The notes beneath the pieces are model-generated. The model searched no databases. It was not told the DNA's origin and worked only from the letters and a program-made list of their open reading frames with translations. 64,000 bases of DNA from Bacteroidota bacterium. GTDB lineage: Bacteria > Bacteroidota > Ignavibacteria > Kapaibacteriales > UBA2268. The stretch covers positions 88,192-152,191 of the forward strand of contig JARKQC010000227.1 in assembly GCA_029974985.1 (NCBI GenBank), in the 5' to 3' direction. A program made the translations under genes and the position numbers. Numbering within the stretch: the stretch's first letter is position 1; every line of letters begins with the position of its first letter. Below are positions 20,477 through 27,397 of the stretch, piece by piece.

Positions 20477-21319
20477 TTAATCCACTAAAAATATGGTAGT
20501 ATTATATTCACTTACGCCAAGTAAAATTATCTTCTTACCGTTTGATAGTGTCTGAATAACTGGCTCATAAGATGTTACTGTTATATCGTAGTAAATGTTT
20601 ACTAATGATAAAAGACTTAGTCTCAGCGAATCTATCGTATAAGCACCTGTATTAGTAGTCATCACATAAGAACCAACAGTTTGACCTATCGCCCCTTCTT
20701 CAGGATTGGTATGACGAATTTCAACTTTCACATATCCATTAGAATAACCACCAATCCACTCTACAGGAATACCATTCTGACGTGATAAAGTGTCATCTCT
20801 ATGAATATTTGTAATTTCTATTCTATTAGAGAATGATACTTGACCAAAAGTACTATCTGGTAATAAACTATTATTAAGACATTCGATGTAGTACTTATTA
20901 TTACCAACACCAAAATATAGTTCGAGTTTATCAGGTCCTACTTTTGAATATGCACCTTTACTATACTCTTTAAGTAAGGAAGCATTAACTAATAAATTTT
21001 CTACTGTTATCGGCTTATTCGTTGCATCTCTAAATGTTGCTTCTGCGTAATTATCAATACCATCGTAAGGTTTATATTCAGTTATACTTCCAAAATTCTT
21101 CCAATTTATAGTGTAATCGTTTCTCTTCTCAGATCTGCACTCAATAACACCTACTAAATCGGGAGTGTTCAGATATGATTGTATTAAATCACTCTCATTT
21201 TCGATTGTACCGGTTGTAGAATTTTGATTTTTACCTGTATTCACAATATTATCCCTATCGCAAGATGATAATAATATCATCGCAACGGCAAATAAAAGAA
21301 TTATTTTTATTTTATACAT
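20477..21319 (-). CDS. Hypothetical lipoprotein
   Basis: Lipobox LLSSC, AGGAG upstream, 280-aa beta-rich ORF. Confidence 0.75.
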   Translation of the reverse strand: MYKIKIILLFAVAMILLSSCDRDNIVNTGKNQNSTTGTIENESDLIQSYLNTPDLVGVIECRSEKRNDYTINWKNFGSITEYKPYDGIDNYAEATFRDATNKPITVENLLVNASLLKEYSKGAYSKVGPDKLELYFGVGNNKYYIECLNNSLLPDSTFGQVSFSNRIEITNIHRDDTLSRQNGIPVEWIGGYSNGYVKVEIRHTNPEEGAIGQTVGSYVMTTNTGAYTIDSLRLSLLSLVNIYYDITVTSYEPVIQTLSNGKKIILLGVSEYNTTIFLVD

Positions 21320-21352
21320 TTTAATGTACTCCTAATTGGTTATTAATTAATT

Positions 21353-22138
21353 TTAATTACAAATTGAACATTCTGCGGATATAGACATCTTGATATGATG
21401 TGGCGAGTCGCTTGCATCATAATTATATTTATTTATATTCTTGGGCTTTAATTTGCACTCAGTACCATCTAAAAATTGAATAGAGCCTTCTTACAAAAAT
21501 TGTCCAGTATATTCAATACTTCTATGTGTTGAACCTTGATTCAAATCAAAGCAAAATTGTTTAATTGGTGGATTAATAACTTTAACATCTCTTGGCGGAT
21601 CATCTGCAAATGGCCAAGATCTGTGAACATAATGTCTTTCATTAAACCACTGTATTGCTTGTTGCTCTGTCATTGCAAATAATTCCGTTTCAGTTGGTTT
21701 ACGACCATACTTCCATTCAAAAATCTCTTCAAAACTATAACGTCTAAATGAGTCTTTTGACCAAAAACCAAAATTTATTTCATAACCTTGTACATACCTA
21801 TTTTTCATAGAAACTGCTTCCTTCGGGCTTGCAGATGCTAATATATTGCTTGTAACATCTTCATTATTACGTATTCTATGAAAAACATATTCGTCTGGTG
21901 GTATACCATCACCATAAAGCCCCATATTTTGATCATAAAGTATATCAAAATATGCTGTTTTTGTTAAATTTATTACTGCATTTTCAAAATTTGCACCAGG
22001 ACAAAGTTCTTGATCAACTTCAATACATACTTCATTCACTTCTTGTTCTAAACAAGAAGTTTGTAAAGATAAAAATATCACTAATAGCGTAATCTTAATA
22101 TACTTTGATTTATTTAAATATAATTTATAAAAATACAT
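21353..22138 (-). CDS. Hypothetical lipoprotein; stops at 21491-21493 but frame stays open to 21353 (possible nonsense allele)
   Basis: Lipobox LQTSC; 45 sense codons follow the TAA in frame (EGSIQFLDGTECKLK...ECSICN*). Confidence 0.6.
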
Positions 22139-22406: not shown

Positions 22407-22444
22407 CCGCCCAACACAAAAACATATTGGGCGACTTGAAAAAT
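22407..22444 (-). terminator. Terminator hairpin after the channel gene, copy 2 of the 38-bp direct repeat
   Basis: Identical to 20421-20458. Confidence 0.85.
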
Positions 22445-22514
22445 ATATTTAATTCTTTGTTACTATTCAACTCAGTAAACAATAATGAAAATAGAGGAAT
22501 TTATTTTTAAATTA

Positions 22515-24791
22515 TTAATTATTATTAGTAATAAGAATTAACTTCGTATCTTGTTTAATAGTAATTTGTTCGGTTTTGGGTGGATTGATTTTAATTTTGC
22601 CATCATCATTAATATATCCGATAGCAATTTCATTGTTTTGTAATGCTAATTCTGTTAAATATGAAAAAGTTACAATTTCATTATTTGATTTTAAATCTTT
22701 TACAATAATTGAACTAGCATAGCTTGAGAATAATTCCATATAAACATCATAAATATTTTTATTTTCAGACACCATCGAAATAAATGAGCTAATCAAATCT
22801 GGTCCGAGCACAAAATCAGCAATATTTTGAATTTTTACTAAATTTTGATTGCCTTTTGTTAATAATTCAGCGGAAATATGAAAATTACAATTCTCCTCTT
22901 TTTGAATTGCTCTAAGATTTACGAGCGTCATCATTGTATTAGCATCGCATTCCAGAAAATCACTTTTTCCATCGTTATTGCTAAGTACTACAATACTATC
23001 ATATTCCTTGATGTTGTAATTAGATAAATCACGATATGTAATTATCGGAGCAGAAATAAATGATAATTCAATTTTACTATCAATATATTTATTTTTTAAT
23101 TCATTTATTTCTTTTTCCATTTCCGGATTTTGAGAAATCACTTGGATTTTAGATTTATCATCAAGATATGAATAAAGTTCCTCGATTATAATTTTAGATT
23201 TAATATTCCAACCTAAAATCAATATTTTTAAGTTATTTGTAGTGTTTTCATTTACTATTTCTATATTATTTGAATTTTGAGGATTTAATCTCTTGTGATT
23301 ATTTTTTTTACTAATTACGGCAGTTGAGTCATCTTCACTAAGAATTATAATTGAATCATCATTTTTGAAAATATAATCTTTATTTGGATTAATAATAAAG
23401 GAGTTGTCATATTTATAGACACCGAGCAATACACTTTGATTATATAAAAACATTGCTTCTTCAAAAGTTTTTTCAATCAAATCTTCTGCAGGAAGAATAT
23501 ATATTTCACTACCGTCGAATCCAACAATTTCCTCATAAATCTCTGCTAAATATTTATTTATGCTAATTTCTGCTAAAATTTTTCCAATAATTTCTTCGGT
23601 AGAAATAATGCATCCGTAATCTTCAATTAATTTTTTAGCAAGTTTAAAATTATCTTCATTATCAAGATCTGCAATTATATTATATTTAGAGTTATCATTA
23701 TTTAGCTGCATAAGAACAAGAATTTGCATAATAGTTTTAATATCATCGTGCTGTCCATAAACATCTTGTGATAAAATTATAATTGATTTTGCGTCTTCGG
23801 GGCGAACTAATCGCAAATATTCAATATTAGTTGGCAGACCCTCTCTAAAAATTATTTTCGTATATTTATAGTCTTCAATATGAAGAGATAGCTCGTCAGA
23901 CATAAGTTTAGTATTTTTATCAGCAAGTATCACAATATATGACTTATTCTCACTTTCATTTGCAATTACTAAATTTGAAACAATTGCATAAATTTGTTCT
24001 GACCATCCTAAAATCAATGTGTGATTTGTTTGCTGAATACGTTTATTAGAATTTTTTTCATCTAATTTTGTTTCGCTAATTTCATTTGTTAAAATTCCAA
24101 CAAATAAATTAAGAAAAACAACAGCCGCAATCATAATGAAACTAACAAAATAAATCACTAAGATATAGTCAGATAATCCATTGTTGAGTGCTTTTTCTAT
24201 TCCTGGCAAATCATAAACCCAAGACCAACCTTCGAAAGCAACAAAAAACAAAGATCTCATAGTTAGAAATAAAGTTCCAAAAGAGTCGGGTTCGTATTTT
24301 CCTAATAAATCAGTTCCAACAACAGAAAAAATATAGAATTGTATAAAAAGTAAGATAACAACATAAGTCATCGAGGGCAAAGAACGCAATAGCGATTGTA
24401 TAAGGATATTAAGATTATGAACTCGTTCGAATAAGCGAACCATTCGTAATATTCTTGCCATTCTTAAAACTACAAAATATGCAGTATTAAAATCATCAGA
24501 AAAATATGGGATAAAACAGACAGCCACTATAATAAAATCAAATATATACCAACCGTTTGTTAACAATCTAATAGGTTTATTAATCTCTGCTATTGTTCTT
24601 ATAATAATTTCAATAACAAAAATTGCAAGAATAATCTCCTCAATAATCCTAAATTGCAATTCGAAACTATTTTTAATTTCTGAATAAGTTTCTAAGCCAA
24701 TAATTAAACTTGCAAATATGATTACAAAAAAAATTGTATTATCGAACCATTTAGAATCTCGTATATTTTTACAATATTCTATTAATTTCAT
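22515..24791 (-). CDS. 6-TM voltage-gated cation channel (BacNav-like) fused to CASTOR/POLLUX-type tandem RCK domains
   Basis: WYIFDFIIV (S3), LRMARILRMVRL (S4), FGTL..SLFFVAFEGW (pore), LNLFVGIL (S6), then NHTLILGWSE..LVIANES and a second ILILGWN. Confidence 0.88.
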   Translation of the reverse strand: MKLIEYCKNIRDSKWFDNTIFFVIIFASLIIGLETYSEIKNSFELQFRIIEEIILAIFVIEIIIRTIAEINKPIRLLTNGWYIFDFIIVAVCFIPYFSDDFNTAYFVVLRMARILRMVRLFERVHNLNILIQSLLRSLPSMTYVVILLFIQFYIFSVVGTDLLGKYEPDSFGTLFLTMRSLFFVAFEGWSWVYDLPGIEKALNNGLSDYILVIYFVSFIMIAAVVFLNLFVGILTNEISETKLDEKNSNKRIQQTNHTLILGWSEQIYAIVSNLVIANESENKSYIVILADKNTKLMSDELSLHIEDYKYTKIIFREGLPTNIEYLRLVRPEDAKSIIILSQDVYGQHDDIKTIMQILVLMQLNNDNSKYNIIADLDNEDNFKLAKKLIEDYGCIISTEEIIGKILAEISINKYLAEIYEEIVGFDGSEIYILPAEDLIEKTFEEAMFLYNQSVLLGVYKYDNSFIINPNKDYIFKNDDSIIILSEDDSTAVISKKNNHKRLNPQNSNNIEIVNENTTNNLKILILGWNIKSKIIIEELYSYLDDKSKIQVISQNPEMEKEINELKNKYIDSKIELSFISAPIITYRDLSNYNIKEYDSIVVLSNNDGKSDFLECDANTMMTLVNLRAIQKEENCNFHISAELLTKGNQNLVKIQNIADFVLGPDLISSFISMVSENKNIYDVYMELFSSYASSIIVKDLKSNNEIVTFSYLTELALQNNEIAIGYINDDGKIKINPPKTEQITIKQDTKLILITNNN

Positions 24792-24808
24792 AATTTAAAA
24801 ATATTTTA

Positions 24809-25510
24809 TTAAATTTTTGTTATTTGTAAATATATTGGACCTCTGTATTTTTTCCCTTTAGCTTGTTTACCAACTGGTGGTGGCATTTCAGTATCTAAAT
24901 TAGAAGAGCCTTCGATATTTAATTGCTCTGGTCTGACACCTTTGCTGATAAAATATTCCTTTAATTCTTCAGCCCGTTCAGTAGTTAGTTTTGAGTTAAA
25001 TTCGCTATCATTTGAGTTATCTGGATAAGCTTTAATTAAAAATTCTGTTCTACGGTTTAATTTTAAAATACTAACTATTTCGTTTAAAATTATATCAGAA
25101 CCCGCTCTTAAGTTAGATTTGCCAACATCGAAAGGAGAAACTTTTAACGGGAATTTCATACCTTCTTTTTTGGGTGTTACTGTAAAATCTTTGGAATATT
25201 CTTGATATTTATTTGTTTTAGGAACAGTAAATTCATACGAATTTGCAAAATACGAAAAATCATTAAACCTAATATAATATGTTGTATCTGGCTTTAATCC
25301 AGTCATAAAATAATAGCCATCTTTCGAATTACTTTTAACAACAAAAATTTGTTTTCCCTCTCCATTAAAAACTCTTACATCAATTCCAACGGGTTCTTTC
25401 GTAAGTTCATTTTTTATAGAGCCTGTTAAGGAAACCACAGTATTTAATTGGCTATATGTTAATGAAAAAGAAGCAATGATTATGAAACAAATTGTTATAA
25501 ATTTTTTCAT
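24809..25510 (-). CDS. OmpA C-terminal-like domain protein with carboxypeptidase-regulatory-like N-terminus (likely start MKKFI at 25510)
   Basis: FDVGKSNL..YPDNS..NSKLTTERAEELKEYFISKGV. Confidence 0.8.
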   Translation of the reverse strand: MKKFITICFIIIASFSLTYSQLNTVVSLTGSIKNELTKEPVGIDVRVFNGEGKQIFVVKSNSKDGYYFMTGLKPDTTYYIRFNDFSYFANSYEFTVPKTNKYQEYSKDFTVTPKKEGMKFPLKVSPFDVGKSNLRAGSDIILNEIVSILKLNRRTEFLIKAYPDNSNDSEFNSKLTTERAEELKEYFISKGVRPEQLNIEGSSNLDTEMPPPVGKQAKGKKYRGPIYLQITKI

Positions 25511-25605
25511 TATTGTACTCCATAAATTTGATTTTTTCTCTAACAAAAATAATATAAAGAATATAGATTACAAAGAAAATTTTAGCTATTAATAAAAAAA
25601 TATTA

Positions 25606-26172
25606 TTATTTTCCGCTAATAATTTTTGATACTATGCCTTTTTTCTCACTATATTCAGCTAAAATCAATCCACCAAAATGCAATATTACAAATATTGGGA
25701 ACCAAATTATTGCAGATTTATGTATCATTTCGATACTCTCTTGCCAATCTGATAATAAATCTTGTTTTATACAAATCCCAGTAAATGCACTAATAAATAC
25801 AAAAATATAAAAAATAATATAAATATATCCTTGCATTTTTTCCTTAATACTTATATTGTTTTTAAATGGGTTAGGAAATTTTATCCCTTTAGTAAACATA
25901 TAAACAATTCTAATAACAAATGAAATTATAACAACGTAAGCAAAAATTTCGTGCCATTGCCACATAGGTTTACGTATTGTTTTTGCAATATCAACTTTAA
26001 TTTCTTTTGCTAATTCAATATTCTGCGTTTTACTTTCGATAATTGAAACGATTTGATTTTTATTCATCCAAGTCATTCTTAAAAAACCAGTAATGAATAA
26101 AACAGCCATCGCAATAGCAATTATCCAATGTAATAAACGATGCAACAAAGTATAATTATTCGACTTTTCCAT
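25606..26172 (-). CDS. Cytochrome b561/b6-domain membrane protein
   Basis: RLLHWIIA, WQWHE, MIHK, ILHFGG heme-ligand histidines in 4 TMs. Confidence 0.88.
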   Translation of the reverse strand: MEKSNNYTLLHRLLHWIIAIAMAVLFITGFLRMTWMNKNQIVSIIESKTQNIELAKEIKVDIAKTIRKPMWQWHEIFAYVVIISFVIRIVYMFTKGIKFPNPFKNNISIKEKMQGYIYIIFYIFVFISAFTGICIKQDLLSDWQESIEMIHKSAIIWFPIFVILHFGGLILAEYSEKKGIVSKIISGK

Positions 26173-26200
26173 AAAATTCCTTATATAACATTAAAAAAAA

Positions 26201-27397
26201 TTATTCTGCAAGTGGTAAATCAAAATAAAATTCAGTACCAACATTTAGTTCTGATTTTACGTTTAATTTACTATTATTTAATTGTACAAATTCGGAACAT
26301 ATTACTAAACCCAAGCCTGTACCTTTTTCTTTATTTGTGCCAAGTTTACTTTTTGTTCCGCCAGCTATGAATAATTTACTAATATCTTCTTCGCTCATAC
26401 CGACTCCACTATCTTTAATTTTAATTCTAACTTTATTATCAATTTTTTCAGCAAGAATATCAATTTTTCCTTCGTAATGAGTAAATTTAATCGCATTTGT
26501 AACAAGATTACGGATTACAGTACTAATCATATTTTCATCAGCAAAAACTTCGAGCGAATTATCAAAATTATAATTAATCGAAATCCTTTTGTCTATTGCA
26601 GAATTATTTACAATATCAAATATATCTGCGACGACATCAAAAATATTAAATTTTTCAATTTTGGCATTTAAAATGCCAGTTTGTGTTCTTGCCCAAACTA
26701 ATAAATTCTCAAGTAATGAATATAAATTCGATGATGAATCATTTAAAAGTGATAGATACTGCTCTAACTCTTCTTCGTCCATTTCTTTATAATCACTCGA
26801 TAACACTTCGGCAAGATTTTTAAACGCACTTAATGGATTTTTTAAATCGTGTGCAATTATTGAGAAAAATTTATCTTTTGTATTATTTGCTTCTGCAAGC
26901 TCTTTTGTAGCTTTTACGAGTGCTTTTTCAATTTTTATTCTTTTTTCAATTTCTTGATTTAATTCAGTGATTTTATCTTGAAGTTTTACATTAATATTTT
27001 TTTCCCAATTTATAAAACGTAAATACAAATTGATTAATCTCGCAAGTTCCGTTTCTATCAAAGATTTATTAATATAATCTATTCCGCCAACTTCTAATGC
27101 TTTTTCTTTAAATTCTTGTTCGGGGTCGGAGCCAGTGATAAAAATTATAGGAATTTTACTTGTTTTAGGGTTATTTCTTATAATTTTTGCCATTTCTAAT
27201 CCATCATAAATTGGCATAAAAACATCTAAAAGAATTAAATCAATTTGATTATTACCAAGGATTCTAATAGCCTCCATACCAGAATTTGCTATTCTAATAT
27301 TTGTATTATTTGTATTGTTTAGTATTAAATCACCAATTATTCTTGTGAAAGTAGGGCTATCATCAACTACAAGAATATGATATTCATTTTTTTTCAT
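26201..27397 (-). CDS. Hybrid receiver + histidine kinase
   Basis: ILVVDD, LLDVFMP; FSIIAHDLKNP, NLVTNAIKF, DSGVG, GTGLGL. Confidence 0.95.
   Translation of the reverse strand: MKKNEYHILVVDDSPTFTRIIGDLILNNTNNTNIRIANSGMEAIRILGNNQIDLILLDVFMPIYDGLEMAKIIRNNPKTSKIPIIFITGSDPEQEFKEKALEVGGIDYINKSLIETELARLINLYLRFINWEKNINVKLQDKITELNQEIEKRIKIEKALVKATKELAEANNTKDKFFSIIAHDLKNPLSAFKNLAEVLSSDYKEMDEEELEQYLSLLNDSSSNLYSLLENLLVWARTQTGILNAKIEKFNIFDVVADIFDIVNNSAIDKRISINYNFDNSLEVFADENMISTVIRNLVTNAIKFTHYEGKIDILAEKIDNKVRIKIKDSGVGMSEEDISKLFIAGGTKSKLGTNKEKGTGLGLVICSEFVQLNNSKLNVKSELNVGTEFYFDLPLAE

Follow-up and report, generated by a model that had tools for sequence, protein, structure and literature searches.

Can a Nav/Cav-type voltage-gated pore and a gating ring of the plant CASTOR type be carried on a single bacterial polypeptide? 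The question is raised by an open reading frame (ORF) at positions 22515–24791, on the minus strand, of a 64,000-nucleotide stretch of the Bacteroidota bacterium assembly GCA_029974985.1 (order Kapaibacteriales; contig JARKQC010000227.1, positions 88,192–152,191); this whole stretch is referred to below as the window. A preliminary description of the DNA, made from its sequence alone, had read the ORF as a voltage-sensor channel joined to a CASTOR/POLLUX ring, and that reading is supported here. As to architecture alone, we regard it as nearly certain that a Nav/Cav-type voltage-gated six-transmembrane (6TM) module and a CASTOR-type tandem RCK unit lie on one chain. As to function, we lean slightly towards a tetrameric cation channel, probably Ca2+-permeable, that would be gated by both voltage and cytosolic Ca2+.

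Domain architecture of the fused channel

The complete frame is a single ORF with an ATG start, open throughout without an internal stop, and encodes 758 amino acids (aa) plus the stop codon (P0001); all features given below lie on the minus strand. A domain search, proposed with the preliminary description, placed both expected Pfam families above their curated cut-offs: Ion_trans (PF00520) covers aa 13–244 (114.7 bits versus a cut-off of 25, E = 5e-33), and Castor_Poll_mid (PF06241) covers aa 399–494 (73.3 bits versus 26.7, E = 1.9e-20). Slo-like_RCK was matched over aa 254–365 (41.5 bits versus 24, E = 1.2e-10), TrkA_N stayed below threshold in the protein (21.5 bits versus 23.8), and a search against NCBIfam returned no model. 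Sequence searches of the Protein Data Bank (PDB) divided the chain at the same place. Residues 8–250 match NaChBac and NavMs at ~1e-27 to 1e-29, and the best matches of aa 1–250 are single domains of Cav3, Cav1 and Nav1.x together with BacNav chains, with no K+ channels among them. Residues 251–739 match the CASTOR ring 6o6j (E = 4.4e-47) and DMI1 7vm8 (E = 8.4e-44), and a profile built from the tail and 30 two-transmembrane (2TM) bacterial relatives matched CASTOR with E = 6.8e-128.

An AlphaFold2 (AF2) monomer model built on a 110-row alignment had a mean pLDDT (predicted local distance difference test) of 91.3 and a pTM (predicted template modelling score) of 0.84. Its helices comprise S1–S4, a long helix over aa 125–163 that contains the S4–S5 linker and S5, P-loop helices, and an S6 running to residue 247, and its cytosolic part forms two Rossmann-like lobes. 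When the model was searched with Foldseek, the CASTOR and DMI1 rings ranked first (E ~1e-36, TMt 0.84–0.89). Next came whole Slo1 chains (E ~1e-22, TMq ~0.53, 13–14% identity), which are the best full-length fold matches. The sequence, profile and Foldseek matches to the ring therefore identify the tail as CASTOR-type and not as a TrkA/KefC RCK, with a BK-like overall layout. A grouping of the tail with ordinary TrkA/KefC RCKs, which the preliminary description had named as evidence against its own reading, was accordingly not seen by Pfam, PDB, profile or Foldseek comparison.

Voltage sensor and pore

The voltage-sensor domain S1–S4 occupies aa 13–123 (24423–24755), as delimited by the Ion_trans match, invariant alignment columns and AF2 helices. 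Four S4 arginines had been pointed out in the string RMARILRMVR, and sequence and family alignment place these gating charges, R110, R113, R116 and R119, at aa 110–119 (24435–24464). Across 22 full-length family members, R110, R113 and R116 in S4, F58 and E61 in S2 and D85 in S3 are invariant, and the fourth S4 charge, at position 119, is R or K across the family. We take the F-x-x-E of S2 and the Asp of S3 to be the charge-transfer centre pattern of the NavAb type. The S4–S5 linker helix and S5 follow over aa 125–163 (24303–24419), as seen in the family alignment, AF2 model and PDB matches; the linker is long, helical and alignable with that of BacNavs, and P139 of 'LPSM', at the kink between linker and S5, is invariant in the 22 members.

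From the alignments and AF2, the P-loop (aa 168–203; 24183–24290) consists of a P1 helix, the selectivity filter and a P2 helix. As previously stated, it contains the string SLFFVAFEGW, here at aa 180–189, and TVGYG occurs nowhere in the sequence. On the seven-position numbering of Shimomura et al. (PMC7041947), the filter reads A185-F-E187-G188-W189-S-W191 (24219–24239), to be compared with T-L-E-G-W-V-D in CavMr. Residues F186, E187, G188, W189 and S190 are conserved in at least 90% of the 22 full-length members. Set against the T-x-E/D-x-W form, E187 and W189 are present and position 1 is Ala (A185), so the absence of the conserved Thr had been correctly noted; several other family members have T or S there. 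The string TFEGW is the filter of Cav domain III.

The filter had also been described as looking one residue shorter than in BacNavs, and in the clade that includes the channel a gap of this length is indeed found against 90 stand-alone rows of a 130-row alignment; a profile alignment shows it against Cav3.1 as well. The missing residue falls at the end of the P1 helix, between 'LF' and the filter, and not within the filter. Downstream, the S6 inner helix (24051–24170) is continuous to aa 247 in the family alignment and AF2 model, and its L227-N228-L229-F230 is invariant in the 22 members. S6 is followed by ~500 aa of tandem RCK and not by the short neck and coiled coil of BacNavs.

The gating ring and its putative Ca2+ sites

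RCK1 extends over aa 254–500 (23292–24032), as placed by the Slo-like_RCK match (254–365), the Castor_Poll_mid match (399–494), PDB sequences and Foldseek; RCK2 extends over aa 520–758 (22518–23234), from PDB, profile and Foldseek matches and the family alignment. Two strings quoted in the preliminary description mark the start of the ring: NHTLILGWSE begins at aa 256 and LVIANES ends at aa 280. In the first strand of RCK1, H257, G262 and W263 are invariant in the 22 members. In CASTOR, four tandem RCK1–RCK2 units form a Ca2+-binding cytosolic gating ring.

Ligand positions were mapped through the CASTOR construct numbering (312–853) and a residue-by-residue alignment of the PDB sequence. According to Kim et al. 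(PMC6697748), the Ca(II) ligands of CASTOR include the E493 side chain and the E552 carbonyl; the Ca(III) ligands are the A342 carbonyl, S345, D553 and D554; D442 is a Ca(I) ligand and D444 a Mg2+ site. When our alignment is read against these positions, A342 and S345 correspond to the ends of A277-N-E-S280 (23952–23963), E493, which serves Ca(II) and a monovalent site, to E429 (23505–23507), and E552, D553 and D554 to E486-D487-D488 (23328–23336), while D442 corresponds to N378 and D444 to D380. Among the 22 full-length members E429 is invariant and A277, N278 and D487 are at least 90% conserved. Considering cluster II in the fused family together with the 30 2TM relatives, E429 is invariant, D487 and A277 are invariant or at least 90% conserved, and D488 reaches at least 90%. 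Of the six named ligand positions of cluster II, five are retained by the fused proteins and the 2TM bacterial relatives alike. Judged by this alignment, the Ca2+ sites of CASTOR are kept in the channel in part only, as putative ligand positions.

RCK2 shows some local variation. The motif G-S-E-I-Y (aa 692–696; 22704–22718) shows a conservation of at least 90% among fused members and 2TM bacterial CASTOR-like proteins; the channel reads A-S-S-I-I, followed by a three-residue deletion, and its closest relatives (P0003, P0004 and P0272) keep G-S/N-E. In another member, the 840-aa P0009, an extra C-terminus of ~76 aa (~765–840) ends in a stretch resembling the last RCK2 strands ('...LIVNPSPS...'), in the manner of a partial duplication.

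Contigs across the fusion junction

The junction between the two halves (aa 240–255) corresponds to window positions 24027–24074. Near-identical DNA was found in 13 DNA or unlabelled sequencing runs from six studies of wastewater and sludge, with at least 0.92 of the sampled words present in every run; seven of the 13 are possibly the source sample itself. Three contigs bridge the junction, with no joints or indels reported: one of 10,481 nt in run X8, which is possibly the source of the DNA, spans 22407–24900 with five differences; one in run X9, from a different study, covers 23967–24900; and one of 910 nt in the metatranscriptome X15 covers 23676–24585 with zero differences. Four of the five differences in the X8 contig adjoin the A-S-S-I-I motif of RCK2, at 22717–22757. 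The preliminary description had named an assembly chimera at the junction among the outcomes that would refute it; the bridging contigs and the many independent homologues described below exclude one.

Near-identical sequence also occurs in RNA libraries, with patchy cover of the gene in X15 and X17; contigs of this kind are silent on expression level and transcript ends. Because an RNA library holds the channel sequence, the gene is probably expressed, and the RNA-library contig is consistent with this. The gene has a GC content of 0.24–0.29, the same as the flanking DNA, and is present in single copy in its own genome (4.3 Mb in 382 contigs). Searching this genome with the channel as query, we did not find a separate BacNav or CASTOR-like gene.

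Distribution of the family

Cluster and hit counts given here derive from the best 120 and best 150 matches, and genome counts from samples of 401 genomes. In a collection of 5.8 billion proteins with precomputed Pfam assignments, Ion_trans and Castor_Poll_mid occur together in at least 28 clusters at 90% identity, not counting that of the window. Identity between members of these 28 and the query is 27–57%; full-length sequences make up 23 of them, a contig end truncates the other 5, and a profile check agrees. When 1.84 billion representatives at 50% identity were searched, the best 150 matches included 13 of full length (744–846 aa) and 2 that are truncated at the N-terminus. Almost all of the remainder are CASTOR-like proteins of ~620–660 aa that match in the ring half only, along with a few long multi-domain proteins that match in the N-terminal half only. 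Named members come from 'Candidatus Kapaibacterium', 'Ignavibacteria bacterium' and 'Bacteroidota bacterium', and the databases call them 'ion transporter', 'hypothetical protein' or 'voltage-gated potassium channel Kch', the last being used by JGI for several.

The best 80 loci retrieved from named species genomes with the family alignment comprised 9 fused or partly fused genes and 71 stand-alone BacNav-like genes from many phyla. The 9 were distributed over Kapaibacterium/Kapabacteria (6), Ignavibacteria (1), Chloroherpeton (1) and a contig-end fragment in a metagenome-assembled genome (MAG) labelled Hyphomicrobiales (1). In the phylum sample a full-length match was present in 1 of 401 genomes, the window's own. 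The class sample gave 5 of 401: G000, one of two further genomes of the same genus (51% identity), two of the same family (39%) and one of the same order (33%). A CASTOR-like gene of the 2TM type, or else a BacNav-like one that stands alone (36–43% identity), is present in many other sampled genomes, and some have both. The distribution of the fused channel is patchy even inside the genus. Within that genus, G566 has the fused homologue at 51% identity; in G694, which is 98% complete, neither half was matched at E ≤ 1e-20.

The architecture is thus neither common in these samples nor, as far as we could find, characterised; the preliminary description had named an architecture already common and characterised as evidence against itself. 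A search of the open full-text literature, which does not extend to subscription journals, found no description of a voltage sensor combined with a CASTOR ring. One homologue, at L018:1726-4069 in the MAG of an uncultured Chloroherpeton sp., is read as two ORFs, 322 and 480 aa long, that overlap in different frames. The break lies shortly past the start of RCK1 and could reflect a frameshift, an error of sequencing or a gene that is naturally split.

Origin of the two halves

The closest stand-alone relatives of the N-terminal half are proteins of ~290 aa (262–322) with short tails and the filters TLEGWTD, TLEDWTD or TGDDWTT, and the nearest of those with TLEGWTD are 36–41% identical to it. 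On this sequence comparison, the N-terminal half is assigned to the CavMr-like group of 'ancestor-like BacNavs'. Bacterial CASTOR-like proteins of ~630 aa have two transmembrane helices and an L/M-D-P/A/S-G loop as in the plant channels. The distal S6 and linker of the fused channels can be aligned with the inner helix and linker of these 2TM proteins, which therefore places the exchange point within or just past the inner helix. Proteins of 619–726 aa that align from query position ~140 or 190 were considered as a pore-only intermediate and rejected, all eight that we inspected having the 2TM CASTOR-type loop.

The 2TM CASTOR/POLLUX-like family of bacteria is itself very large, with hundreds of clusters at 50% identity and conserved cluster-II ligands (P0025-P0121, P0128-P0264; L002-L012), and in the sampled class such proteins are far commoner than the fused form. 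Their database names are generic or putative ('potassium transporter TrkA', 'Kch', 'CASTOR/POLLUX-related putative ion channel'). Two matches in the same class have interrupted frames and may reflect pseudogenes or sequencing errors: a 2TM CASTOR-like match contains one in-frame TAG (G674:C37:7419-9326), and a match of the stand-alone BacNav-like kind contains one in-frame TAA (G684:C1:2558254-2558901).

Separate trees of the two halves, as envisaged in the preliminary description, were built with FastTree on 144 and 130 rows and with IQ-TREE quick searches on 63 rows per half. The FastTree tree of the C-terminal half omits alternate 2TM rows and 12 cluster members that are near-identical. The IQ-TREE set of the N-terminal half omits 7 locus rows (mostly duplicates or near-copies) and 2 contig-end fragments and keeps 32 of 90 stand-alone rows; that of the C-terminal half omits 4 truncated rows and keeps 33 of 110 2TM rows. 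The same four fused groups appeared in the trees of each half. Group 1 is the main clade, includes the channel and has x-F-E-G-W-S filters; groups 2 and 3 are a T-F-D-D-W-S pair and a T-G/A-E-G-W group; and group 4 is a single protein with T-M-E-S-W-S-M that adjoins a stand-alone Marinoscillum channel (support 99).

Approximately unbiased (AU) tests were run after the FastTree trees had been seen, with the fused groups defined by architecture and not by the trees. Holding the 31 fused N-terminal halves together, as a single origin would have it, was rejected (log-likelihood difference 71, p-AU = 4.5e-6); holding the 30 fused C-terminal halves together was not rejected (p-AU = 0.39). Taken together, the tests leave either several fusions or a single fusion after which the 6TM module was exchanged. 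A fusion of this kind seems to have formed more than once.

Proposed function and alternative readings

The gene is best described as encoding one subunit of a putative homotetrameric cation channel built of two known modules, a BacNav-type S1–S6 unit (aa 1–250) and a CASTOR/POLLUX-type RCK1–RCK2 unit (aa 254–758). As each module is already well known, the new element is their combination on one chain. Depolarisation would move S4, which would pull on the long BacNav-like S4–S5 linker. Ca2+ may bind in the cleft that separates RCK1's N-lobe from its C-terminal subdomain, at E429, D487, D488, A277 and S280, and the changed ring would then pull on the linker between S6 and RCK1. Both inputs would meet at the S6 gate, as in BK. 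Given Glu3 and Gly4 of the filter, the pore is probably permeable to Ca2+ and perhaps also to Na+, and Ca2+ that enters could feed back on the channel's own gate. That the channel is tetrameric, is gated by voltage and has Ca2+ for its ligand is our inference, as are its ion selectivity and the sign of any feedback. Taken as a whole, a tetrameric, probably Ca2+-permeable channel gated by voltage and cytosolic Ca2+ has, in our judgement, a little better than an even chance of being right. The fuller picture, a BK-like bacterial channel, Ca2+-permeable and gated by voltage and Ca2+, that has been assembled repeatedly out of different BacNav lineages and CASTOR-type rings and in which Ca2+ entry promotes or terminates opening, is tentative, and on balance we are inclined to doubt it in this complete form. 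If true, a single protein would equip these bacteria for regenerative spikes, whether of Ca2+ or electrical.

Several observations weigh against a voltage- and Ca2+-gated Ca2+ channel. The equivalent of the Ca(I) ligand D442 is N378 in the channel, and D, N, T or S across the family, and RCK2 lacks the family's near-invariant G692 and E694. The filter differs from that of CavMr in having Ala1 in place of Thr, Ser at position 6 and Trp7 in place of Asp, behind a P1 helix shorter by one residue. In view of these departures, and of the effect of V6T in CavMr (PMC7041947), CavMr selectivity is not simply transferable. Contigs from RNA libraries are no proof of transcription, as such libraries may contain DNA, and the neighbours in the window are not repeated beside the channel in the six homologue loci examined.

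The ion that passes the pore is the first point on which a different reading could be upheld, namely that the same architecture has a Na+-selective or non-selective monovalent pore and serves as a voltage-gated Na+ channel under tuning by the ring. The BacNav class consists of Na+ channels, and Shimomura et al. describe NavPp, of the same ancestor-like group, as Na+-selective (PMC7041947). An acidic or polar residue 7, which that paper notes in CavMr and in Cav domains I and III, is missing from the filter here. The Ser at filter position 6 points the same way, V6T having lowered Ca2+ selectivity in CavMr in that source, and pore geometry may differ because P1 lacks one residue that all aligned stand-alone relatives have. 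What counts against a monovalent pore is Gly4, conserved in at least 90% of the family. In the same paper, selectivity for Ca2+ has its key determinant in Gly4, both in CavMr and in NavPp: G4S and G4D destroyed the selectivity of CavMr, and introducing Gly4 (D4G) sufficed to make NavPp selective for divalent ions (PMC7041947). We consider a monovalent pore unlikely.

A comparable doubt attaches to the ring, which might respond to another signal (Mg2+, Na+ or K+, pH or a nucleotide) or serve as a structural or assembly domain that replaces the BacNav coiled coil. CASTOR also binds Mg2+ and Na+ or K+ at sites adjoining its Ca2+ sites and is modulated by them (PMC6697748). The Asn at the Ca(I) position, variable in the family, and the lost G692 and E694 of RCK2 fit such a ring, and stand-alone relatives end in a short tail, heptad-like by eye, whose place the ring has taken. 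Against it stand the five of six cluster-II positions that are kept, with E429 and D487 invariant or nearly so. Also against it are the first strand of RCK1, which reads LGWSEQ and contains no GxGxxG dinucleotide motif, and the TrkA_N score below cut-off. A ring that does not sense Ca2+ is improbable in our estimation, and Ca2+ remains our preferred ligand.

That the protein conducts K+ as a Kch- or BK-type channel, as the JGI name 'voltage-gated potassium channel Kch' for several relatives and the rank of whole Slo1 chains as best full-length structural matches could suggest, is very improbable, since the sequence has no TVGYG-type signature, its P-loop aligns with Nav and Cav filters, aa 1–250 match Cav3, Nav1.x and BacNav best, and identity to Slo1 is just 13–14%. 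An assembly chimera or decaying pseudogene, for which one could cite the fragmented assembly (382 contigs, 6.86% contamination) and the split homologue L018, is effectively refuted by the same architecture in many independent assemblies at 27–57% identity, the independent contigs across the junction, the open frame, the conserved functional residues and a GC content matching the flanks.

Genomic neighbourhood

On the same strand, three genes lie directly upstream (24809–27397): one for an OmpA-family protein with a weak CarboxypepD_reg match, 17 bp from the channel start, one for cytochrome b561 (Ni_hydr_CYTB) and one for a hybrid response-regulator/histidine kinase. Downstream, at 20477–22138 on the minus strand, lie adjacent ORFs of 280 and 215 aa whose N-termini are hydrophobic and followed by Cys (lipoprotein-like by eye), with no Pfam match. 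A tblastn search with seven window neighbours against the loci L002-L021 gave generic kinase or receiver matches only. As gene context is not conserved in the six homologue loci, the neighbours offer no clue to function.

Comparison with known systems

The closest relatives of the ring are the Ca2+-regulated channels CASTOR, POLLUX and DMI1 (6o6j, 6o7a, 6o7c, 7vm8) of the plant nuclear envelope, which share the tandem RCK ring, Castor_Poll_mid and the cluster-II positions. Neither the plant channels (PMC6697748) nor the bacterial relatives of ~630 aa have S1–S4, and their 2TM pore carries a D-x-G loop (LDPG or LDAG in the bacterial proteins), whereas the channel has a Nav/Cav-type 6TM module; the Ca(I) ligand D442 of CASTOR is Asn in the channel. 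For the N-terminal half, the nearest described systems are CavMr and the ancestor-like BacNavs (Shimomura et al. 2020, PMC7041947), with the same single-domain 6TM plan and E-G-W filter core. The filters differ, TLEGWVD in CavMr versus AFEGWSW in the channel, as do the tails, short in BacNavs and a ring of ~500 aa here.

MthK, GsuK and E. coli Kch likewise place an RCK ring beneath a tetrameric P-loop channel, and GsuK is among the fold matches. E. coli Kch has six transmembrane segments. These three are K+ channels with RCKs of the TrkA_N type; in contrast, TrkA_N is below cut-off in the channel and the filter is not of the K+ kind. BK/Slo1, like Slo2 and Slo3, has the same layout of voltage sensor, pore and tandem-RCK ring on one chain. 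The BK calcium bowl is a run of aspartates, and no such run occurs in the channel sequence. BK is, moreover, K+-selective and has an S0 segment. Its S4–S5 linker is short and its sensor non-swapped (PMC13095418), whereas the channel combines a Nav/Cav-type pore with a long BacNav-like linker.

The family would offer a compact homotetrameric model of ~760 aa for how a gating ring couples to a BacNav-like, presumably domain-swapped sensor, and also for how an E-G-W filter selects Ca2+. In Kapabacteria and Ignavibacteria of wastewater and sludge communities, it points towards signalling by Ca2+ or by electrical means. To our knowledge, all characterised channels that join a voltage sensor to an RCK ring (BK/Slo, Kch) are K+ channels, and we know of the CASTOR ring only on pores without a sensor. 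Compared with both, a Nav/Cav-type pore run jointly by a voltage sensor and a Ca2+-binding ring would represent a new wiring of excitability.

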